From a virus (taxonomy: Duplodnaviria; Caudoviricetes): a stretch of DNA of 64,000 nt. Where the stretch lies: the IMG/VR virus record IMGVR_UViG_3300035499_000522, positions 1 to 64,000 of that record; one strand, written 5' to 3'. Below the pieces are notes generated by a model, which saw only the letters and a program-made list of their open reading frames with translations, was not told the DNA's origin and ran no database searches. Positions 24,735-53,335 of this stretch are shown piece after piece. The translations under genes were made by a program, and so were the position numbers. Numbering within the stretch: the stretch's first letter is position 1; each line of letters begins with the position of its first letter.

Positions 24735-25320
24735 TACATATGACTATTCAGATAGCTATTATTTATATGATTTCCGCAAAGAATCTATGCAGTTTATTGG
24801 TAATTATAATGATTTTATTAAATTTTTAGCAAAAGGCTATGAAATAAGATGGCTTCCTGATGAGTGTGGTTGGTATGATTGGAGAGAATATAATAAATAT
24901 CTTACTTATTACACTTGCGATGTAAATGAATCTTATCCTAATATGAGATATTTTTTGTTTATGAGAGACAAAAGTGTAATTAATCCCTCTATTTATCAAG
25001 AGGAAGTAAAAAAATGTGCGGAAGCCATGCAGTTGGAAGCTAAAACAATGTATGGCGTAGGTTGGCATAAACCTTTGTATTATTTTAAGTATAGGAAGGG
25101 TCCAGTGCCTAATACTGCCTGTTATAGAGGCGGGTGCAGCCAGAAATCTGCAAGGGTTAAGAGTATTCTTATATCTAAAACCGACCCAGAATATAAAGAA
25201 TTTCATCGAACATTTAAGAGTAGAAAAAGACCCGTACCTGTGTGCTGGGATGACCGCTTCCGCCGCCCGCAAAGAAGTTGGAAAGAGCAAAGAAAAACTC
25301 AATATAAGGAGAAGAATTAA
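24724..25320 (+). CDS. hypothetical protein with basic C-terminus
   Basis: GGAGG RBS; R.GPVP...WDD...RSWK..RK.QY tail. Confidence 0.6.
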   Translation: MLYNTYDYSDSYYLYDFRKESMQFIGNYNDFIKFLAKGYEIRWLPDECGWYDWREYNKYLTYYTCDVNESYPNMRYFLFMRDKSVINPSIYQEEVKKCAEAMQLEAKTMYGVGWHKPLYYFKYRKGPVPNTACYRGGCSQKSARVKSILISKTDPEYKEFHRTFKSRKRPVPVCWDDRFRRPQRSWKEQRKTQYKEKN

Positions 25321-25822
25321 TGAATATAATAGCTTATGTACTATTGCTAATAGCTTGTTTTATTATGATATTCACTACAGAAGGAATAAAACTATATATC
25401 TATATTATATTGGGTATTTCTATTGTTTTTGAAATAATTACTGTATTAGCATATGTAGCAGAGGAGTATCTTATAAGCAAAGGTATTATTCAAATTATAG
25501 AAGATGAAGATAATAATGATAAAAATCAAGATAAATGATTAATTTGATTTTTAAAAAATTTTATGATATAATATATATAGAAAAGTTAAAAAAGAAAAAA
25601 TAATTTAGAGAGGTGCTTTATATGAGAACTGTTGTTTATGTAGATGACTATGGTGACAAGCATATTATAGAAGTTGACCCTTTGGATGAAATTTTTCTTA
25701 GAAGCAGATTTACAATTATATCTTGCGAGTCTGCTTAAAATTTGATTTTTTAAAAAATTTATGTTATAATTATATTATACATTTTGGTTATTAATAGTTT
25801 ATTTTGGTTATCTCAAACTCTA

Positions 25823-25888
25823 AAGGCATTTACAGCAAATTTTAAAGGAAATAATATAATAGCTTTAATTATTTATTAAAATGCCTTG
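25823..25888 (+). ncRNA. ACAGCAA terminal-stem element E1 (identical to E5)
   Basis: AAGGCATT-TACAGCAA...AATGCCTTG; 66 nt identical to 36407-36472. Confidence 0.55.
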
Positions 25889-26175: not shown

Positions 26176-26203
26176 ATTATATCTTAAGTAGTAGATATAT
26201 ATA

Positions 26204-26269
26204 AAGACGCAGACAGCAAATTAATAATTTTGTTTTAAATTTCCAAAACTTCAAAATGATAGCGTCTTG
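26204..26269 (+). ncRNA. ACAGCAA terminal-stem element E2
   Basis: AAGACGC-AGACAGCAA...GCGTCTTG. Confidence 0.55.
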
Positions 26270-26439
26270 TTTAAAAAACAAATACATTCTTTATACATAT
26301 TAAATTACTTCATTTCATGAAAAGTATAGGATTTTTTAGTCCTATACTTTTTTCTTTTGGGCAAACCCCTTATAATATTTTCTATAAAAATTTAATATTA
26401 ATTAGTAAAATCTTTATAGACGGGGAGGAATTATCTTTT

Positions 26440-26613
26440 ATGTATAGTATTACTAAATAGTCAAAAGGTTATGTAACAGAATTTGTAGTAGATTATTTAA
26501 CTGATATTACTACTTTGCCTATCACGCCCTATGCTATTGGAAGTACTTGTTTTTGTATAGAAGATTCTAGTGTTTGGATGTTAGGAAATGATAGACAATG
26601 GCATTAGATTTAA
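26440..26613 (+). CDS. small virion-type protein (2 TAG=Gln)
   Basis: GGAGG RBS; EFVVD..DI..LP....GSTCFCIE..VWML. Confidence 0.6.
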
Positions 26614-26629
26614 GGAAGGAGAGATTTAA

Positions 26630-27151
26630 TTGGATATAGTTACATATGCTTTGTGTAAAAGATTAGCTAAAAGTGCGGTAACAGGTATATCAAAACTCTC
26701 TGTTGATGGAACTACTTTAAAAATAATTTTAAATGATGGTTCTGTATTAAATATGGAATTTCCTACTCCTTTAGACGGAAAATCTATTACTAATGTTACA
26801 ATTAATGATGATAAACATTTAATATGTACATTATCATCAGGAGAAGAAATAGATGCGGGCAAGCTGCCGGAAAGCATTACAGATTATTCACAGTTATCGA
26901 ATTTACCTTCTATTAATGGAGTTACTTTAACTGGTGATTTAACGGTTGCCGCAGTCAAATCTGATGAAGATGTTCCCGCAAATGTAGATATACCTATTAC
27001 TTATACAGATAGAGTATTTAGCGGAGATAGCGACCTTGATTTAGCTGACAAAGAAGATGTAGATGAAATGTTTGATAAATCAGAAGAAAAAGAAGATAAT
27101 AATGATGGCTATACTTTTGCCGATAAAGAAGATATAGATAATTTATTTTAA
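26630..27151 (+). CDS. tail-fibre-like protein
   Basis: DGKSI...L..G.EIDAG, DYSQLSNLPSINGVTLTG; two A.KED(V/I)D..F motifs at C-terminus. Confidence 0.6.
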   Translation: MDIVTYALCKRLAKSAVTGISKLSVDGTTLKIILNDGSVLNMEFPTPLDGKSITNVTINDDKHLICTLSSGEEIDAGKLPESITDYSQLSNLPSINGVTLTGDLTVAAVKSDEDVPANVDIPITYTDRVFSGDSDLDLADKEDVDEMFDKSEEKEDNNDGYTFADKEDIDNLF

Positions 27152-35266: not shown

Positions 35267-35345
35267 TAAGCATTAACAGCAATTTTAATATAATTTTAAA
35301 GAAATTTTTAATAATAATAGAAAATATAGAATATTAAATGCTTAG
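35267..35345 (+). ncRNA. ACAGCAA terminal-stem element E3
   Basis: TAAGCATT-AACAGCAA...AATGCTTAG, just after a sigmaA promoter. Confidence 0.5.
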
Positions 35346-35378: not shown

Positions 35379-35455
<77 letters not shown>

Positions 35456-35460
35456 CTTTA

Positions 35461-35640
35461 AAGACACATGGGTATTGCAGCAAAAAATCAAATTATAATA
35501 GATAAGTAATACTAATGATAATTTGTTTCTTTGTTTAAAAGAAGATAGGTTATTATAAATGAAGCGTTTGATGGATTAAATACTCTTTGAAGTTTTTCGA
35601 TTAATCCAAATGCTTGCCAGAGGAAACTTCCGGTGTCTTG
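35461..35640 (+). ncRNA. terminal-stem element E4 (long variant)
   Basis: AAGACAC...GCAGCAA...GTGTCTTG with internal hairpin. Confidence 0.45.
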
Positions 35641-35647
35641 TTTTTAT

Positions 35648-35723
35648 CGAGATGTAAGTCAATTGGTAGACGGCTAAGTTTGGGGCTTAGTAGCTGGAGG
35701 TTCGAGTCCTCTCATCTCGACCA
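35648..35723 (+). tRNA. tRNA-Pro(UGG)
   Basis: CTAAG-TTTGGGG-CTTAG, ACCA. Confidence 0.9.
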
Positions 35724-36263: not shown

Positions 36264-36406
36264 CGGAGAAGCATTATAGGGGCTATGACTGCTAGCCTTA
36301 GCCTTTGATAGCAGCAGTAAGGACGTCCACGCAATAACCAAAGGGTTCCGCTTCTCTTTTTATTTGTAAAATTTAAAAATTTATGTTATAATTAATATGT
36401 AATCAA

Positions 36407-36472
36407 AAGGCATTTACAGCAAATTTTAAAGGAAATAATATAATAGCTTTAATTATTTATTAAAATGCCTTG
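36407..36472 (+). ncRNA. ACAGCAA terminal-stem element E5
   Basis: identical to 25823-25888; between a sigmaA promoter and the suppressor tRNA. Confidence 0.55.
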
Positions 36473-36479
36473 TTTATTT

Positions 36480-36570
36480 TGCGGAGTTGGCAAGCGGTTA
36501 AGCCTCAGGTCTCTAACACCTGCACCCCTTAGCGATAAGGTCCAGAGTTCGAATCTCTGCTCCGCAACCA
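36480..36570 (+). tRNA. amber suppressor tRNA(CUA), probably Gln-accepting
   Basis: CAGGT-CTCTAAC-ACCTG; U1:A72 and A73 as in this phage's tRNA-Gln; GTTCGAA T-loop; ACCA. Confidence 0.88.
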
Positions 36571-36578
36571 ATTTTTTA

Positions 36579-36667
36579 AAGATGCTAACAGCAAATTATT
36601 CTGGTTTAATAAAACTTATTTGAATGAAAACTTAATTTTCATATAATAAAAATATTTTGGCATCTTG
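36579..36667 (+). ncRNA. ACAGCAA terminal-stem element E6
   Basis: AAGATGC-TAACAGCAA...GCATCTTG. Confidence 0.55.
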
Positions 36668-36765: not shown

Positions 36766-36841
36766 GAGGTTTGTAGTGTAATGGTTAGCACGTCAGTTCG
36801 TGGCACTGATAGAAAGAGTTCAAATCTCTTCATTCCTCCCA
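36766..36841 (+). tRNA. tRNA-His(GUG)
   Basis: G-1:C73, anticodon loop TCGTGGC; two U-U mismatches in the acceptor stem. Confidence 0.75.
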
Positions 36842-36849
36842 CTAATTTA

Positions 36850-36978
36850 AAGGCACTTTCAGCAATATTAATTAGATATTTTAAGGAATTTTGTACATGG
36901 GTTCAATTCCCATTGCCGCTGCAATTAGTGGCGGTATAGCTTAGAGGTAAAGCAAAAATAATATACTAAAGTGTCTTG
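36850..36978 (+). ncRNA. element E7: Y-RNA/YrlA-like RNA with circularly permuted tRNA domain
   Basis: terminal stem AAGGCACTTT/AAAGTGTCTT plus CAGCAA; inside: T-arm 36897-36913, loop-closed acceptor hairpin 36914-36936, D-arm 36939-36953. Confidence 0.7.
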
Positions 36979-36985
36979 TTTATTT

Positions 36986-37062
36986 GCTTGTGTAACTCAA
37001 ATGGCTAGAGTACTTCTTTCATAAGGAAGAGGTTGTAAGTTCAATTCTTACCACAAGTACCA
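36986..37062 (+). tRNA. tRNA with CAU anticodon (elongator Met or Ile2)
   Basis: CTTCT-TTCATAA-GGAAG, ACCA. Confidence 0.85.
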
Positions 37063-37408
37063 AAACGGCTAGTAGCTGTGAATATAGGCGGAGTTAAATT
37101 AAGAAGAAAGGATTGAATTATCTCCTTTCTACCCAAATCTTCGTTAGGGTGATAACATGAGAGCTGCTCCTATGGCTGAAGGCTCTTTACTAGCTTCGTA
37201 ATTTTGAGGAATGAGAAACCTGCTCTCAATGGTTGAAATGATATATACCGAGAGCCGTGCTAATACGTATTAGACAAAATTATGACGTTACTTAAATAAG
37301 CGTGAATATTTAAGGTTTCTTATCTCAGTGCTTCATGGTGCGGCAGTCGCAGATAAGAATCAAAAAACCATGAAGCTTTACATACAACTTTAATTATTTT
37401 ATATATAT

Positions 37409-38412: not shown

Positions 38413-39936
38413 ATGAATACTTTTATGAATGAACTTGAAAAGACTACTAATTTTACTACAACCACTAATGGTGCAACTGCTCATAAGTCTACCTTGAGCA
38501 AGGTATATGATTTGTTTGCTTTTGGCGGTGCATATCGTAATCGCAGCGAAGCAGATTGTATTAATTTGTTTAAGAATGCTTATGAGGAAGATTCCTCTAT
38601 GGCATTGAAGTGTCTGTTCTACTTGGTTGATGTACGCGGAGGTCAGGGGGAGCGTAGATTCTTCAGAGTGTGCTTCGCTTGGCTTTGTAATGAGCATCCT
38701 GAAGTTGCTTTCCGCCTTGTAGATAAGATTCCTTTCTTTTCGAGATGGGATAACATTCTTTATGCAATTCCTGATTCTGCTACTTATGTTAAGAACGAAG
38801 CTTATGAAGTAATTAAGACTCAGCTTGCTCTTGATATGGATTCAAAGACACCTAGCCTTATGGGTAAGTGGCTTCCTTCAGAGAATGCTTCCGCTCAGAA
38901 AACTAAGAATGAGGCTCATAAGCTTAGAAAGTATCTTGGTTATTCTCATAAGGAATATAGACAGATTCTCTCTGCTTTGAGAAAAAAGATTAATGTTCTT
39001 GAAAGACTTATGTCATCTAATCAGTGGGATAAGATTGAGTTTGATAAGATTCCTTCTAAAGCTGGTCTTATTTACAAGAACGCATTTGCAAGAAATGATA
39101 TAACATCAGAAAGATATAAGGCATTTGCTGCAAACAAAAATACAAAAGTTAATGCTTCTACACTTTATCCTTATGACGTTGTAAAAAAGGCAATTGACTT
39201 TAATTACAGTTATGGCTTTTATGGTAATTCAGAAACTGATAGAAATATGATTAATAAGTATTGGGAAAATCTTCCTGATTATTTGAACGGAGCAGATTGC
39301 AAGATGCTTTGTGTTTGTGATACAAGCGGAAGTATGCGTGGAGGTGCTGCCGCTGCCCCTATTAATGTTGCGATTGGATTATCCATGTATTGTGCAGAAC
39401 GTATAGGCGGTCCTTTCAAGAATCATTATATTAGTTTTTCATCTCGTCCTCAGCTTATTGAAACAAAAGGTGTAGACTTTGTAGATAAGGTCAAGAGAAT
39501 ATATGACACAAATCTTTGCGAAAATACTAACCTTGTGGCAGTATTTAACCTTTTAAAGGATACAGCATTGAAAGCTAATGTAAAGAAAGAAGATATGCCC
39601 GAAACAATAGTTGTAATCTCTGATATGGAAATTGATGCAGGTACAAGTCCTTGCTGCTGGCGTAAATACAACGATTTTAAACGCTGGACAACAAAATCAG
39701 CATCAACTGAAATGGAAAAGATAAGAGAAGAGTGGGCGGCAGCTGGCTTAACGCTTCCTAGAATCGTGTATTGGAACGTTAATGCAACTACCGACATAAT
39801 TCTTGATTCTGGTCCTGATGTAACCTTTGTGTCAGGTGCTTCCCCCATAATATTCAAGTCGGTCATTACAGGCAAAACTGGAATCGACATTATGCTTGAA
39901 GTTCTTTTGAATGACAGATACGCAAATATTTTTTAA
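38413..39936 (+). CDS. DUF2828 (TROVE/Ro60-like helical domain) plus vWA protein
   Basis: T.NGA, DVRGGQGERRFF, KWLPSE, YR..LS.LR, DTSGSM MIDAS motif, ISDME. Confidence 0.8.
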   Translation: MNTFMNELEKTTNFTTTTNGATAHKSTLSKVYDLFAFGGAYRNRSEADCINLFKNAYEEDSSMALKCLFYLVDVRGGQGERRFFRVCFAWLCNEHPEVAFRLVDKIPFFSRWDNILYAIPDSATYVKNEAYEVIKTQLALDMDSKTPSLMGKWLPSENASAQKTKNEAHKLRKYLGYSHKEYRQILSALRKKINVLERLMSSNQWDKIEFDKIPSKAGLIYKNAFARNDITSERYKAFAANKNTKVNASTLYPYDVVKKAIDFNYSYGFYGNSETDRNMINKYWENLPDYLNGADCKMLCVCDTSGSMRGGAAAAPINVAIGLSMYCAERIGGPFKNHYISFSSRPQLIETKGVDFVDKVKRIYDTNLCENTNLVAVFNLLKDTALKANVKKEDMPETIVVISDMEIDAGTSPCCWRKYNDFKRWTTKSASTEMEKIREEWAAAGLTLPRIVYWNVNATTDIILDSGPDVTFVSGASPIIFKSVITGKTGIDIMLEVLLNDRYANIF

Positions 39937-49048: not shown

Positions 49049-49068
49049 AGAAAGGAAAAGTGGTAGAT

Positions 49069-50244
49069 ATGCTTAATAAAGATAATGAGAGAATGCTTGC
49101 TTACACCGCAAGAGTAAGCTGGGTACAGCCTATCGAAGGTGCTGATAACATTGAACTAATAGGCATTAACGGTTGGACTTGTATTGCTAAGATTGGAGAG
49201 TTCAAAGAGGGAGACATATGCGTTTATTTTGAAATTGATTCTAAGCTTCCTGAAGCACCTTGGTCTGCGTTTATGGCATCTAAGCACTATAAAGTAAAGA
49301 CTATGAAGCTTGGTAAATTCAAGGTTATATCTCAGGGTCTTGCACTTCCTGCTGCCGCATTTGATATTGATATTCCTCTTGAAGAAAATGTTGATATGAC
49401 TAAAACACTTGGTGTTACTTATTCTATTGAGGAAGATAACAAGAGAAAAGCTAATTCTGCTGATAAGTATGCGGCAATGACTCGCCGCCATCCCAATATC
49501 TTTAAGCGTCCTATTGCACGTTGGCTGATGAAGCGGGAATGGGGCAAGAAGCTTATGTTCTTATTCTTTGGCAAGAAGAAAGAAAACAAGACTTCATTTC
49601 CTACACACTTTGAATACGTGAAGAAAACAGACGAAGAAAGAATTGAGTGCGTTCCACATCTACTCAAAAATAAAACAAAACTCATAGCCTCCGAGAAGCT
49701 CGATGGCACAAGTACAACATTTATTTTGGAACGTAAGGGCAAAAAGAAATTTGAATTTTATGTACTTTCTCGTAATGTAAGACAGCTTACGCCTGACCAG
49801 AAATGCTATCACGATGATAATATCTATTGGAATATGGCTTTTAAATATAATATTGAACAGCATTTGAAGAATTACCTTAATGAAAATCCTGAACTTAAGT
49901 ATGTATGTCTTCAGGGCGAATCTGTAGGAAGCGTACAAGGCAATCCGCTCAAACTTAAGGAAGATGATTTTTACGGCTTTAATTTTATTCGTTCAGATGT
50001 AGGAAGAATTTCATCTCTTGAAGGTAAGAAAATCTTGGAATCTTGGGGAATGAAGTGGGTTCCTATTATCTCAACAGAATGGGTTAATCCTGATACTATG
50101 GAAGAAATGAAGAAACTTGCTACTGGTAAGTCTTTGGTTAATCCAGAAGTATACAGAGAAGGAATTGTATATAGAAGTGAAGAAGATAATAAACTTAGCT
50201 TTAAATCGGTTTCAGCTGAATACCTTTTGAAGCACAATATCTAA
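49069..50244 (+). CDS. RNA ligase, DRB0094/Rnl5-like
   Basis: PIEGADNIE, YFEIDS, KTDEERI, EKLDGTS, QGE, REGIV, FKSVS. Confidence 0.85.
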   Translation: MLNKDNERMLAYTARVSWVQPIEGADNIELIGINGWTCIAKIGEFKEGDICVYFEIDSKLPEAPWSAFMASKHYKVKTMKLGKFKVISQGLALPAAAFDIDIPLEENVDMTKTLGVTYSIEEDNKRKANSADKYAAMTRRHPNIFKRPIARWLMKREWGKKLMFLFFGKKKENKTSFPTHFEYVKKTDEERIECVPHLLKNKTKLIASEKLDGTSTTFILERKGKKKFEFYVLSRNVRQLTPDQKCYHDDNIYWNMAFKYNIEQHLKNYLNENPELKYVCLQGESVGSVQGNPLKLKEDDFYGFNFIRSDVGRISSLEGKKILESWGMKWVPIISTEWVNPDTMEEMKKLATGKSLVNPEVYREGIVYRSEEDNKLSFKSVSAEYLLKHNI

Positions 50245-50257
50245 GGAGGAATTAATA

Positions 50258-50482
50258 ATGAAGAGAACAATTTGTATTTCAGACATTCGAGATATAACAA
50301 GTCTTTGCCATCAGGCACAGTCTATTAAGGGTGCAGTAGATGTATCCAAGGGTAAGTACTGCGTTGATGCTTGCTCGCTTATGGGTCTTCTTTCTATTGA
50401 CTTGTCAACAGGTGCGGACATAGAATACCCTGATGATGCGGCTAGTTTTGATAGCTTTTGCTCACTGTATGAAGTTAAGTAA
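50258..50482 (+). CDS. HPr-like phosphocarrier protein
   Basis: VDACSLMGLLS resembles the HPr VDAKSIMG Ser46 region; no His15 motif. Confidence 0.65.
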   Translation: MKRTICISDIRDITSLCHQAQSIKGAVDVSKGKYCVDACSLMGLLSIDLSTGADIEYPDDAASFDSFCSLYEVK

Positions 50483-50630
50483 TATAATATAGGACTAACC
50501 ACCCTATATTAACATATATTTTCACTCTTAAAAATAAAGTTACTATAAAGCAGTAACTTTATTTTTTTTATTTTTTATGTTATAATATATATGTAATAAA
50601 AAATAAGAAATATGAAAGAGGTTGATTAGA

Positions 50631-50984
50631 ATGAAAAAGAAAGAATATATTATTTCAGAATTTTATTGTACTCATTGCGGAGCCAAGGGCATGAGCCTCC
50701 CTCGAAATAGAGGTAAGCAGAGAGCCCCCGGTCATCTGAAGAATCTGTTTTGCTGCAATTGCCAGTGTCAGAGAAATCATGTTGAAATTAGACCCAATTG
50801 CCGCTACACAAAAGAAGATTTTGACTTAGAGTTTGAACTTGGAAGATATGTAGATGGCAATATTACCCCCATAGGTCAGTTGCCGCTTTGCAAAGAGGAT
50901 TGCCCTTATAATGTTAATGGAAGATGTTGGAACACAAATCATTCTTATGATTGTGATAAGAGAAAGGAAGATAGCAATGACTAA
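50631..50984 (+). CDS. zinc-ribbon protein
   Basis: CTHCG...HLK.LFCCNC. Confidence 0.6.
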   Translation: MKKKEYIISEFYCTHCGAKGMSLPRNRGKQRAPGHLKNLFCCNCQCQRNHVEIRPNCRYTKEDFDLEFELGRYVDGNITPIGQLPLCKEDCPYNVNGRCWNTNHSYDCDKRKEDSND

Positions 50985-51495
50985 GAAATTTCGTTATCCT
51001 AATGAATTAATTTTCGTAGTAGGGGCACCCGGTTCTGGTAAGTCTACATATTTAAAAGAACACGCAAATGAGTATTCTTCAAATTATAAAATTATTTCAA
51101 GAGATAAAATAAGATTTTCAATGCTTGACAAAAATGATGATTACTTTAATAAGGAAGATGCAGTATTTAAGGAATTTATTAAGCAGATTTATGAAGCATT
51201 ACTTGATGGATATGATGTATTTGTAGATGCCACTAATTTAAATAAAAAATCAAGAAGAAAAACATTAAAAGCTTTATTAAACTACAATTCTGAACATTTA
51301 GAAAATGGAATAATGCTGGTATCCCTTTCCGCAATTTATTTTGATACTTCTCTTGAAACTTGCTTATATAGAAACAATAAAAGAACAGGAAGAGAATTTG
51401 TACCTAAGTCTATTGTAAAACGTATGTATTTTTCTTTAGAAAAGCCTACAAAAGAAGAAGGGTTTGATATAGTATGGAAAGCGAAGGAGGATTAA
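50977..51495 (+). CDS. polynucleotide-kinase-like P-loop kinase (AAA_33)
   Basis: GAPGSGKST, SRD.IR, DATN, R...R.GR..VP. Confidence 0.8.
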   Translation: MTKKFRYPNELIFVVGAPGSGKSTYLKEHANEYSSNYKIISRDKIRFSMLDKNDDYFNKEDAVFKEFIKQIYEALLDGYDVFVDATNLNKKSRRKTLKALLNYNSEHLENGIMLVSLSAIYFDTSLETCLYRNNKRTGREFVPKSIVKRMYFSLEKPTKEEGFDIVWKAKED

Positions 51496-51496
51496 G

Positions 51497-52075
51497 ATGT
51501 CAGATATCTGGTTTACAAGTGATTTACATTTAAACCATAATAAAGATTTTATTTATAAAGCAAGAGGATATAATTCAGTAGAAGAAATGAATGAAGCCTT
51601 AATTGAAAATTGGAATAAAGTAGTAAAAAAGACTGATATAGTTTATGCTTTAGGCGATATAATGCTTGGTGATAAACTTGCGGGAATGAGATATTTATAT
51701 AGGCTTAATGGTAAAATTATCGTCATCATTGGCAACCACGATACTGATGCCCGCATTAGAATTTATGAAATTGTACATAATATAATAGATGTAAAATATG
51801 CAGATAGAATAAAAATTGACAAATACAATTTTTGGCTTTCTCACTATCCTACTAATACAATTAATTTTGATTATGATGCAAATAAGCCTCTATCTTATTT
51901 AGTGTTGAATCTTCATGGGCATACTCATCAAACTACTAACTTTATAAATGATAATTATACTCAATATCATGTAGGAGTAGATTCACACAACAATACACCT
52001 GTTGCCGCAGAAGATATTATTAAAGAAATTAAGGAATGTAGAGATAGGGCAAATATTAATAAAATTATTACTTAA
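51497..52075 (+). CDS. calcineurin-like metallophosphoesterase
   Basis: SDLH, LGD, GNHD, SHYP, HGHTH. Confidence 0.85.
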   Translation: MSDIWFTSDLHLNHNKDFIYKARGYNSVEEMNEALIENWNKVVKKTDIVYALGDIMLGDKLAGMRYLYRLNGKIIVIIGNHDTDARIRIYEIVHNIIDVKYADRIKIDKYNFWLSHYPTNTINFDYDANKPLSYLVLNLHGHTHQTTNFINDNYTQYHVGVDSHNNTPVAAEDIIKEIKECRDRANINKIIT

Positions 52076-52123
52076 TTTATCATTTATATTAAGAAATAAT
52101 TTCTAAGCAAAGGAGATAAAAAT

Positions 52124-53335
52124 TTGAGTAAATTTTTTCTTGATACAAATATTTTGCTTGATAATAATGTAGAATCTATTGTTGAAAATAATGAATTTTA
52201 TGTTAGTATTATCACATTACAAGAATTAGAGCATATCAAAACTTCTTTTAATAAAGACGAAAGTACAAAAGAAAAAGCAAGAAAAGCGTTGCATTTTTTA
52301 AAAAACAATGAAAATAGACTTCATATAGCAAGTCCATTTGCTGTAGATTCTAATGAATTAAATCATAATAATGATGAATTGATTATTAGTTCAATATTAA
52401 ACTTAGATAAAAAAGATATAACTTTTGTAACAAAAGATTTAGCTTGCTATATGATAGCAAAAAACTATAATATAAATGTATTATATCCTGAAAAGAAAAT
52501 AGAAGAATATCACGGATATAAAGAAATGCGGCTATCACAGGAAGAGGCTGCCGAATTCTATGCTAATGGATATGAAGAAAACAAATATAAACTCTTGAAT
52601 AATGAATATTTAATAATTGCAGATGAATTTGGAAATATATTTGACCATTATAAATATTCAGACAATCAACTTATAAAAGTACCATATACAAAATTTAATT
52701 CTAAAATGTTTGGTAAAATTGTACCTAAAGATGTTTACCAAGAATGTCTTTTGGATAGCTTTAATACAAATAAAGTAACATTAGTAGGCGGACCTGCGGG
52801 CTCAGGTAAAACATTCATGTCACTCGGCTATTTATTCTACTTGCTTGAAAAAGGTGAAATAGATAGAATAGTTATTTTCTGCAATCCAGTTGTCGCTAAA
52901 AATGCCGCAAAGCTCGGATTTTATCCGGGAACCGTGTTGGAGAAGCTACTATCGACGCAAGTTGGAGCCGTACTGTCAAGTAAGCTTGGTGATATTACAG
53001 AAGTTGAAAGATTGGTAAATCAAGGTTCATTGGTTCTTATGCCAGCTGGAGATTCACGCGGCTACGAGGTTCCCGCACATTCTGGTGTATATATTATGGA
53101 AAGTCAAAATCTTGATATTGTACTTTTGAGAATGATACTTCAAAGAATAGGCGAAGATTGTATCACAATAGTAGATGGTGATAGAGAAGAGCAAACCGAT
53201 ATGGAAATTTATGCTAATGATAATAATGGTATGGCTAGAATGTCAGAAGTATTCAAAGGTTCAAAAATATTTGGTCAAGTAGATTTAAAATATATTTATC
53301 GTTCTGAAATTGCATCTATTGCAGATTATATGTGA
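52124..53335 (+). CDS. phoH: PIN plus PhoH-family ATPase
   Basis: LDTNILL PIN; GPAGSGKT, LGFYPG, ESQN, GD..Q.D. Confidence 0.85.
   Translation: MSKFFLDTNILLDNNVESIVENNEFYVSIITLQELEHIKTSFNKDESTKEKARKALHFLKNNENRLHIASPFAVDSNELNHNNDELIISSILNLDKKDITFVTKDLACYMIAKNYNINVLYPEKKIEEYHGYKEMRLSQEEAAEFYANGYEENKYKLLNNEYLIIADEFGNIFDHYKYSDNQLIKVPYTKFNSKMFGKIVPKDVYQECLLDSFNTNKVTLVGGPAGSGKTFMSLGYLFYLLEKGEIDRIVIFCNPVVAKNAAKLGFYPGTVLEKLLSTQVGAVLSSKLGDITEVERLVNQGSLVLMPAGDSRGYEVPAHSGVYIMESQNLDIVLLRMILQRIGEDCITIVDGDREEQTDMEIYANDNNGMARMSEVFKGSKIFGQVDLKYIYRSEIASIADYM

Follow-up and report, generated by a model that had tools for sequence, protein, structure and literature searches.

A circularly permuted tRNA mimic in a phage tRNA array, a probable Y RNA-type partner of a divergent Ro60-like protein

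What kind of gene is a sequence that carries the arms of a tRNA in permuted order, has no anticodon loop and lies between two tRNA genes? This question is raised by positions 36850-36978 (+ strand) of the window analysed here, a 64,000-nt stretch of viral DNA (Duplodnaviria; Caudoviricetes; G+C ~31%) that forms the first 64 kb of a 136.7-kb virus record (IMGVR_UViG_3300035499_000522), itself 86% complete. The element lies inside a tRNA array, where it occupies the 144-nt spacer between tRNA-His and tRNA-Met, and a preliminary description made from the sequence alone had taken it for a circularly permuted tRNA-like domain. We propose that 36850-36978 encodes a small non-coding RNA of the Y RNA kind, more precisely the YrlA type, belonging to a divergent Ro60-like protein encoded nearby, and we put the probability of this reading at roughly 0.75. 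Y RNAs and Ro60 have been found in animals, in a few phages and in some 5% of bacteria.

Structure and conservation of the element

The minimum-free-energy (MFE) fold of the element has an outer 10-bp helix (36850-36859 with 36968-36977) that encloses the tRNA-like part, which explains the end coordinates chosen in the preliminary description. The T-arm, closed acceptor, TA dinucleotide, D-arm and AAAAT/ATTTT pairing listed there were all found exactly where it had placed them. From 5' to 3' the element is made up as follows, with the basis of each assignment in brackets.

36850-36859 (+): terminal stem P1, 5' strand, pairing with 36968-36977 (MFE fold, covariation)
36860-36865 (+): CAGCAA, conserved and single-stranded, presumed protein-binding site (alignments, short sister RNAs)
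36866-36887 (+): A/U-rich linker (sequence)
36888-36892 (+): anticodon-stem-like helix, 3' strand ATTTT (tRNA positions 39-43), pairing with 36955-36959 (sequence)
36893-36896 (+): variable loop GTAC, its final C being Y48, with a Levitt pair to G15 possible (sequence)
36897-36913 (+): T-arm, 5-bp stem and loop TTCAATT with T54, T55, C56, R57 and A58 (sequence)
36914-36920 (+): acceptor stem, 3' strand (sequence, covariation)
36921-36929 (+): acceptor-closing loop of 9 nt, first base at the discriminator position (sequence)
36930-36936 (+): acceptor stem, 5' strand (sequence, covariation)
36937-36938 (+): U8-A9 junction, the "UA" dinucleotide of YrlA (sequence; 10.1101/312249)
36939-36953 (+): D-arm, 4-bp stem and loop AGAGGTA, with A14, G15, G18, G19 and A21 (sequence)
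36954-36959 (+): A26 (36954) and the anticodon-stem-like helix, 5' strand AAAAT (36955-36959, positions 27-31) (sequence)
36968-36978 (+): terminal stem P1, 3' strand (36968-36977), and the conserved unpaired G36978 (MFE fold, alignment)

The nucleotides that build a tRNA elbow are complete (T54, T55, C56, A58, G53-C61, A14, G15/C48, G18 and G19). The acceptor stem has 7 bp including two G-U pairs, and two more pairs are possible, giving 9 bp closed by a 5-nt loop; no CCA is encoded in the loop at 36921-36929. The linker at 36866-36887 forms a weak A-U hairpin at most, and many relatives have a hairpin like a variable or anticodon arm at this place. The fold energy corresponds to z = -3.2, with none of 200 shuffles as stable.

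It had been expected that tRNA scanners would miss such an arrangement, and indeed ARAGORN and the Rfam tRNA models call nothing at the element. The best Rfam signals there cover the T-arm and acceptor region and come from tmRNA (15.4 bits) and tmRNA_permuted (12.8 bits). These weak matches could point to a two-piece (permuted) tmRNA. In such molecules too the T-arm and the 3' acceptor strand precede the 5' acceptor strand. However, both scores are far under the gathering score of 47, ARAGORN reports no tmRNA, and the element has a true D-arm with a full 4-bp stem, an arm absent from tmRNA, and a short acceptor-closing loop, with neither a tag reading frame nor pseudoknots. We give the tmRNA identity next to no credence.

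Searches by sequence gave little. The exact 23-mer over the T-arm and acceptor had 0 matches in the viral contig collection, nhmmer with the 144-nt spacer found nothing in the first six loci, and blastn against GenBank phages returned tRNA matches only. The family is too divergent for a sequence-only search and was found with a structure descriptor (T-arm, acceptor strand, short loop, pairing strand, 2 nt, D-arm), scanned through 85 related virus loci that had been fetched with the neighbouring 507-aa gene as query. The same permuted layout occurs in a dozen of the 85 loci, never within a called tRNA and always on the strand of the Ro60-like gene; the acceptor sequences of these matches are wholly unlike one another, and their strands nonetheless pair. 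All tRNA mimics in the related loci are enclosed by one and the same module, namely a terminal stem of 7-10 bp whose 5' strand is followed, after a few nucleotides, by CAGCAA and whose 3' strand is followed by a G.

A first covariance model was built from a single locus and then rebuilt from ten loci of other phages, with the window left out. Against this ten-phage model the element scores 62.8 bits (E 2.4e-11), and the model recovered 47 additional full-length members from another set of loci, which had been fetched independently. A MAFFT alignment with acceptor strands out of register was rejected and the alignments were remade with covariance models. In these alignments, which are fitted to the model and so favour the structure, 13 sequences have 95.6% of cells paired and compensatory change in 20 of 23 pairs, with a covariation score of 0.785 against 0.239 for shuffled sequences and at most 0.14 with the partner slid. 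The figures for 45 distinct sequences are 22 of 23 pairs and 0.826 against 0.219. In P1, 5 of 7 pairs covary among the 13 sequences and all 7 among the 45; in the acceptor stem all 7 pairs covary, each with four to six pair types.

Nucleotide conservation was counted over 56 distinct members. T54, R57, A58, U8 and the D-loop GG are present in every one of them, and T55, C56, Y48 and A14 are kept in 53-55 (Y48 in 54, A14 in 53); A9 is found in 37. The two letters past the last modelled P1 pair, which in the window are T36977 (also paired) and the unpaired G36978, read TG or AG in 53 members. A strictly placed 5-bp anticodon-like stem is formed by 29 of the 56; dealing the 3' linkers out among the members gives an expectation of 2.5. 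The preliminary description had tied its reading to the conservation of the arms in homologues; with the T- and D-loop nucleotides kept in 53-56 of the 56 members and the acceptor pairs covarying, conservation of the arms is what we found, and the permuted tRNA-like domain is real (as judged by its score against a model that excludes it, the fold energy and the covarying homologues).

The same data bear on whether the element could be functionless debris, in which the 3' half of one decayed tRNA gene has come to lie beside the 5' half of another. The element does sit in a tRNA array, and simple scans for tRNA features also give look-alike matches at tRNA-tRNA junctions. Yet the acceptor strand of one half pairs with that of the other, and the architecture recurs in 56 distinct sequences of very different phages, with compensatory change in 22 of 23 pairs and always within the same stem module. 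Covariation thus excludes debris as far as comparative data can, and we regard this origin as highly improbable.

Apart from these features, nine of the 56 mimics (at L073, L031, L015, L061, L097, L132 and L147 among other loci) have a pentamer just before the variable loop that has two possible partners. Pairing with a local copy upstream would form a small hairpin, and pairing with the pentamer that follows the D-arm would form the anticodon-like stem; the sequences of the two partners are the same or nearly so. Such an arrangement may be left over from a tRNA dimer, or it could act as a conformational switch.

The stem-plus-CAGCAA module and the neighbouring gene

In place of an anticodon loop, whose absence had been correctly described, the element has the terminal stem and the CAGCAA motif, and this module is common to sister RNAs that are not tRNA-like. 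CAGCAA is almost invariant across the alignments of tRNA mimics and in the short sister RNAs. Counting the tRNA mimic itself, the window holds seven RNAs with the module; the other six are listed here.

25823-25888 (+): sister RNA of 66 nt, identical to the copy at 36407-36472 (module search, model)
26202-26270 (+): sister RNA with the module (module search, model)
35267-35345 (+): sister RNA behind an extended -10 promoter-like site (module in sequence)
35461-35640 (+): sister RNA with an interior of ~145 nt (module in sequence)
36407-36472 (+): sister RNA directly upstream of the tRNA with anticodon CUA (module search, model)
36579-36667 (+): sister RNA in the interval between the tRNA with anticodon CUA and tRNA-Tyr (module search)

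Module and gene share an orientation. A mechanical search for the module returned 167 instances on the strand of the Ro60-like gene and 26 on the other, shuffled sequence giving ~20; 127 of 128 covariance model matches lie on that strand (+), and the related loci hold ~150 modules, nearly all on one strand. The interiors vary. Some are simple hairpins, about one in ten modules holds a permuted tRNA mimic, and others hold tRNA-like inserts in normal order. In ~11 cases a whole tRNA called by ARAGORN lies inside the module (L015:1432-1543, L023:939-1050, L032:1801-1913, L056:2697-2811 and others), and the module is thus able to frame real tRNAs and mimics alike. One of the enclosed tRNAs has the anticodon UCA and would read UGA; at L009, L010 and L014 the insert is tRNA-like in normal order with a poor acceptor stem.

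Two of the sister RNAs flank the window's only tRNA with anticodon CUA (36480-36570), each at a distance of 8 nt. This tRNA, 91 nt in length, has the class II shape with its long extra arm and is labelled Pyl by ARAGORN. The late genes of the window are open only with TAG read through, and the tRNA is the presumed TAG reader of this recoded phage.

The gene downstream of the array is the presumed protein partner.

38413-39936 (+): Ro60-like gene, 507 aa, Pfam DUF2828 and DUF7788, von Willebrand factor A (vWA) MIDAS motif DTSGS, presumed partner of the RNAs (Pfam, alignment, model, Foldseek, VIA-align)

It starts 1.4 kb downstream of the element's end (36978), on the same strand. Pfam finds DUF2828 and DUF7788 in the protein and only a faint vWA match, and the MIDAS motif is invariant in the homologue alignment. 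We searched with an AlphaFold2 model of the protein (pLDDT 70.5, pTM 0.60). The top 13 Foldseek matches are all Ro60, Rsr or TROVE structures, matched over the full length (E 2e-7 to 3e-4), and vWA-only matches come next. VIA-align likewise gives Z 13.6 and 12.6 for Ro60 of Thermus phage phiLo, 11.8 for Deinococcus Rsr and 8.8-10.6 for animal Ro60, over 349-398 residues, compared with Z ~8 for vWA domains alone. By its modelled fold, the DUF2828/DUF7788 protein is Ro60-like, which is less than demonstrated orthology. DUF2828 proteins are encoded in 703 GenBank phage records, including Felix O1-like and P100/A511-like phages and mycobacteriophages. A literature search on DUF2828 returned nothing relevant; the domain name occurs in plant studies.

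Do module and gene travel together? A 16-nt pattern of the module, scanned through the viral collection, returned 80 loci, of which 56 have the complete module and 24 have no partner strand within reach in the locus. DUF2828 is encoded in 31 of the 34 module-bearing virus records searched. For the loci lacking a partner strand, 16 records were searched; 6 of them encode DUF2828 and 10 do not, and these 10 pattern matches are likely to be chance.

Cultured phages place the same RNAs beside the same gene. Listeria phages LP-064 and cka15 have three RNAs within 340 nt upstream of the Ro-like gene; those of cka15, at 25,290-25,552, stand in tandem and not between tRNAs. Bacillus phage PK-3 has about ten module RNAs, two of them with permuted tRNA mimics (the better one at 52 bits), and Mycobacterium phage Lolly9 has three, with one mimic at 61 bits. 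The E. coli Felix O1-like phage ekra has four, including one mimic at 47 bits, and in Felix O1-like phages the homologue of the window protein lies beside the tRNA array. In P100-like phages RtcB, an RNA ligase and a phosphoesterase follow a few genes downstream of the Ro-like gene, a row that recalls the bacterial rsr-yrlBA-rtcBA operon.

Two of these systems have been described recently. The cka15 protein CKA15_055 is a direct homologue of the window protein (34.7% full-length identity); an Rsr-like nature and neighbouring Y RNAs have been suggested for it, and virions were found to contain it (PMC12282133). For Bas63 gp130 the published description is of a Ro60-like protein, encoded beside tRNAs, that counters the Ppl defence (PMC11482910); to judge from that description, it would be the orthologue of ekra_107. 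Both papers guessed at possible Y RNAs nearby and neither identified the RNAs (PMC12282133; PMC11482910), whereas here they are defined, three in cka15 and four, with a permuted mimic among them, in ekra. An abundant CKA15 transcript region at 26,236-26,727, one of three reported (PMC12282133), does not coincide with the module RNAs at 25,290-25,552. The corresponding part of LP-064 (L204 5417-6075, equivalent to cka15 ~26,236-26,727) is an unannotated stretch of ~500-650 nt with a strong promoter-like site, upstream of the Ro-like gene, and it corresponds to the most abundant non-coding transcript reported for CKA15 (PMC12282133).

Comparison with YrlA and points on either side

Phage Ro60-like proteins accompanied by Y-like RNAs are already known (PMC4201824; PMC12135203; PMC7824862), and the bacterial YrlA RNAs offer the closest comparison. 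In YrlA, a stem formed by the RNA ends binds Ro60 and carries GNCGAA(N)G; the tRNA-like part runs in the order variable region, T-arm, closed acceptor, UA and D-arm, with conserved elbow nucleotides; and the RNA is encoded within ~4 kb of Ro60 on the same strand (PMC4201824; 10.1101/312249). YrlA is also bound by Ro60 in vivo, and TruB and DusA modify its T and D loops (PMC4201824). The window element shares with YrlA (RF02553) the terminal stem formed by the ends, a circularly permuted tRNA mimic in the same order with the anticodon-like stem first, the conserved elbow nucleotides, adjacent sister RNAs and a Ro60-like gene within a few kb on the same strand; a 7-bp acceptor is shared with the YrlA of M. 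smegmatis. Moreover, the Lolly9 mimic matches RF02553 at 37.7 bits (E 6e-5), a sub-threshold score confined to model positions 23-89, the tRNA-like core without the stem. The order of the arms, the Ro60-fold gene 1.4 kb downstream and this Lolly9 match agree with the earlier suggestion of a YrlA-like elbow mimic.

There are also differences. The partner is a DUF2828/DUF7788 protein, the RNA is embedded in a tRNA array, separated from its tRNA neighbours by short tails, and its stem module also frames plain hairpins and complete tRNAs. In architecture the RNA is thus YrlA-like, yet its family is distinct from YrlA and has a stem module of its own as well as a divergent partner. The phiLo system likewise has a phage Ro60 ring with Y-like RNAs upstream on the same strand, and its Ro60 binds these RNAs, Yrl1 and Yrl2 (PMC12135203; PDB 9KOP, 9L5Y). 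The two structures are the best structural matches of the window protein (Z 13.6 and 12.6), at ~15% identity in the structure-based alignment. In phiLo, however, the RNAs were recognised by a CGAA motif and a stem-bulge-stem shape and not by a tRNA mimic.

Several observations weigh against a Y RNA of a Ro60-like protein. On the protein side, Pfam TROVE does not match the protein even at E 10, and neither the protein nor its profile matched a PDB sequence; with the sequence searches blank, the link to Ro60 depends on a moderately confident model (pLDDT 70.5) and low TM-scores of 0.34-0.45. On the RNA side, the stem has CAGCAA where YrlA has GNCGAA(N)G, no CGAA is present in 36842-36897, and RF02553 (gathering score 69 bits) gives no match at the locus at E up to 10. 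Complete tRNAs inside some modules are not predicted by a simple Y RNA model. Finally, the association of module and DUF2828 is strong but confounded by common phage descent; tRNA arrays accompany the modules no less closely than the Ro-like gene does, and the partner of the modules could be some other factor.

On the Y RNA-type reading, the element would consist of two modules. The first, the terminal stem with its single-stranded CAGCAA, would be the docking site for the Ro60-like ring protein (38413-39936); it is common to six other RNAs of this phage and to hundreds in related phages. The second is the apical permuted tRNA mimic, in which every tRNA-elbow nucleotide is present. By analogy with Ro60/Y RNA particles, the stem would hold the protein while the tRNA-shaped end may recruit or distract a tRNA-binding factor, for instance an enzyme of processing, modification or repair, or a defence nuclease with which the host attacks tRNAs. 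From the evidence above we infer such binding and role, together with the ends of the RNA considered below.

Processing in the tRNA array and possible circularisation

If the element is an RNA gene, how would its transcript be made and trimmed? Its immediate surroundings are as follows.

36767-36841 (+): tRNA-His, CCA encoded (ARAGORN, Rfam)
36842-36849 (+): 5' tail of 8 nt, from the CCA of tRNA-His to the terminal stem (sequence)
36979-36985 (+): U-rich 3' tail that doubles as the 5' leader of tRNA-Met (sequence, ARAGORN)
36986-37062 (+): tRNA-Met, the downstream neighbour (ARAGORN, Rfam)

No terminator-like site lies between the element and its neighbours; the element is therefore probably co-transcribed with the tRNAs and freed by tRNA processing. 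Extended -10 promoter-like sites precede the sister RNAs at 35267 and 36407. The RNA would be transcribed within the array, and its excision would probably fall to the enzymes that process the adjacent tRNAs. The 3' end of tRNA-His, after its CCA, would then probably set the 5' end of the spacer RNA, and RNase P, cutting at 36985/36986 to mature tRNA-Met, would produce the 3' end. RNase P cleavage leaves a 3' hydroxyl.

A gut metatranscriptome run provided contigs over parts of the window region. None covers 36850-36978, which is uninformative on expression, the library being shallow and small RNAs possibly lost. One contig of 222 nt (depth 2.5) reads 35482-35647 and then directly 35456-35511, that is, a closed 192-nt cycle with a 30-nt overlap from a k=31 graph. 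The last base before tRNA-Pro (35647) is joined in it to the first base after the CCA of tRNA-Met (35456, the CCA ending at 35455). The head-to-tail unit, 35456-35647, is exactly the spacer between tRNA-Met and tRNA-Pro (which starts at 35648) and contains the sister RNA 35461-35640. It may be a circular RNA with ends made by tRNA processing, or a tandem copy. A literature search on circular phage spacer RNAs returned nothing relevant.

Further along the window lies a row of genes like those of RNA repair (49060-53335), which also includes a PIN-PhoH protein.

49060-50244 (+): Rnl-type RNA ligase with N-terminal OB fold (PHA02142)
50779-51495 (+): P-loop kinase (AAA_33), with TAG read through
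51497-52075 (+): metallophosphoesterase

A tie of these genes (49060-52075) to the RNA 36850-36978 is one that we only infer. RtcB (PF01139) was not found in the 86%-complete record. T4 Rnl1 (PF09511) was not found in the record either; its control was positive in no genome, and the blank accordingly means little.

These data raise the question of whether the module serves excision and circularisation. The stem would hold the processed ends for a ligase, yielding a closed, exonuclease-resistant RNA, here a circular tRNA decoy, with the Ro60-like protein a bystander or one of several partners. The junction of the head-to-tail contig falls exactly at tRNA boundaries. The tails between stem and tRNA are regular (8 nt on both sides for three window copies), and other loci show an excess of 3-8-nt gaps between a stem and the next tRNA. 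A ligase of the Rnl type, a kinase and a phosphoesterase are all encoded by the phage, and P100-like phages have RtcB and an RNA ligase near the Ro-like gene. On the other hand, the lead comes from a single low-depth contig in one run and concerns a sister RNA rather than 36850-36978, and the junction could also reflect template switching in library preparation or a variant phage with a tandem repeat. An invariant CAGCAA would be needless for a stem alone, and in Listeria phages the RNAs form a tandem series upstream of the Ro-like gene instead of filling spacers between tRNAs. We consider such a cassette quite unlikely as the main explanation, although it overlaps with the Y RNA reading and both could be true together.

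A permuted tRNA gene would make use of the same step. Circularly permuted tRNA genes, whose transcripts go through a circular stage, are known from Cyanidioschyzon merolae, some green algae and archaea (10.1101/312249). As in the red-algal genes, the transcript would first be circularised, after which RNase P and 3' trimming would open the acceptor loop and yield a tRNA of normal order. The element shares with these genes the 3' half upstream of the 5' half, a precursor acceptor closed by a loop and ends held together by a stem; it also has a 7-bp acceptor with a base at the discriminator position. In 11 of the 56 relatives NCCA opens the acceptor-closing loop, directly after the acceptor 3' strand (for example L061:3826-3942), and the YrlA of M. 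smegmatis is cleaved by RNase P and receives CCA (PMC4201824), suggesting that some members are opened to a tRNA-like 3' end in the same way. A ligase is encoded by the phage, and the sister spacer RNA shows the head-to-tail junction. NCCA at this place is far above its chance frequency, and one further sequence outside the 56 (L007:6359-6486) has ACCA at the start of the acceptor loop.

Permuted tRNA genes, however, retain the anticodon loop, offer the splicing endonuclease a bulge-helix-bulge site and yield decoding tRNAs. The window element has neither such a site nor a 7-nt anticodon loop; linkers, CAGCAA and the terminal stem stand there instead, in common with RNAs that have no tRNA features, and in most relatives the acceptor loop is 3-6 nt long and lacks CCA. 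The product would be unable to decode. The alternative raised in the preliminary description, a permuted tRNA precursor in need of the phage RNA ligase, is therefore set aside as far as a decoding tRNA is concerned, and a circular step is hinted at by the sister RNA's junction and the Rnl-type ligase; we judge a permuted tRNA gene very unlikely.

The Y RNA-type reading can be joined to circularisation in a more elaborate proposal. The stem-plus-CAGCAA RNAs would be excised by tRNA enzymes, the stem would juxtapose a 5' phosphate and a 3' hydroxyl for the ligase, and the products would be nuclease-resistant circular Y RNAs. RNase P could reopen the NCCA members to a tRNA-ordered form ending in CCA, and with the Ro60-like protein the RNAs would act as decoys or adaptors against host tRNA- or RNA-directed defence. 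We offer this as a tentative and rather doubtful extension.

Two other spacers of the array deserve mention. The interval between tRNA-Met and tRNA-Gln (37072-37320) holds a conserved structured RNA of ~220-250 nt with invariant blocks and no Rfam match; 20 of its 43 predicted pairs show compensatory change. Its homologues occur in four other phage loci (L104, L119, L148 and L149), lying ~100 nt downstream of a tRNA-mimic RNA at L119 and L148 and on the opposite strand at L149. The deepest contig of the metatranscriptome run (37078-37302, depth 7.9) lies over this RNA. In the spacer after tRNA-Ser (36264-36360), the terminal G+C-rich segments are complementary (GGAGAAGC with GCTTCTC) and the interior is richer in G+C. 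This spacer may be a further structured RNA, one lacking the CAGCAA module; nhmmer found no homologue of it among the fetched loci.

Measured against the literature searched and Rfam 15, the family of stem-plus-CAGCAA RNAs, its permuted mimic members, the link to DUF2828 across phage groups and the variety of heads are new. The family is large and structurally well supported, no Rfam model reaches its gathering score on it, and it spans Felix O1-like, Listeria P100-like, Bacillus and mycobacterial phages, where a divergent Ro60-like protein goes with it. A domain of unknown function thereby gains a candidate RNA partner and, in the stem plus CAGCAA, a candidate binding site, and the "possible Y RNAs" of two recent phage papers, one of which links the protein to escape from Ppl, gain concrete identities. 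One presumed protein-binding module presents many heads, from hairpins through permuted tRNA mimics to whole tRNAs. If true circularisation lies behind the junction in the sister RNA, circular RNA would arise in phage-infected bacteria by a new route.

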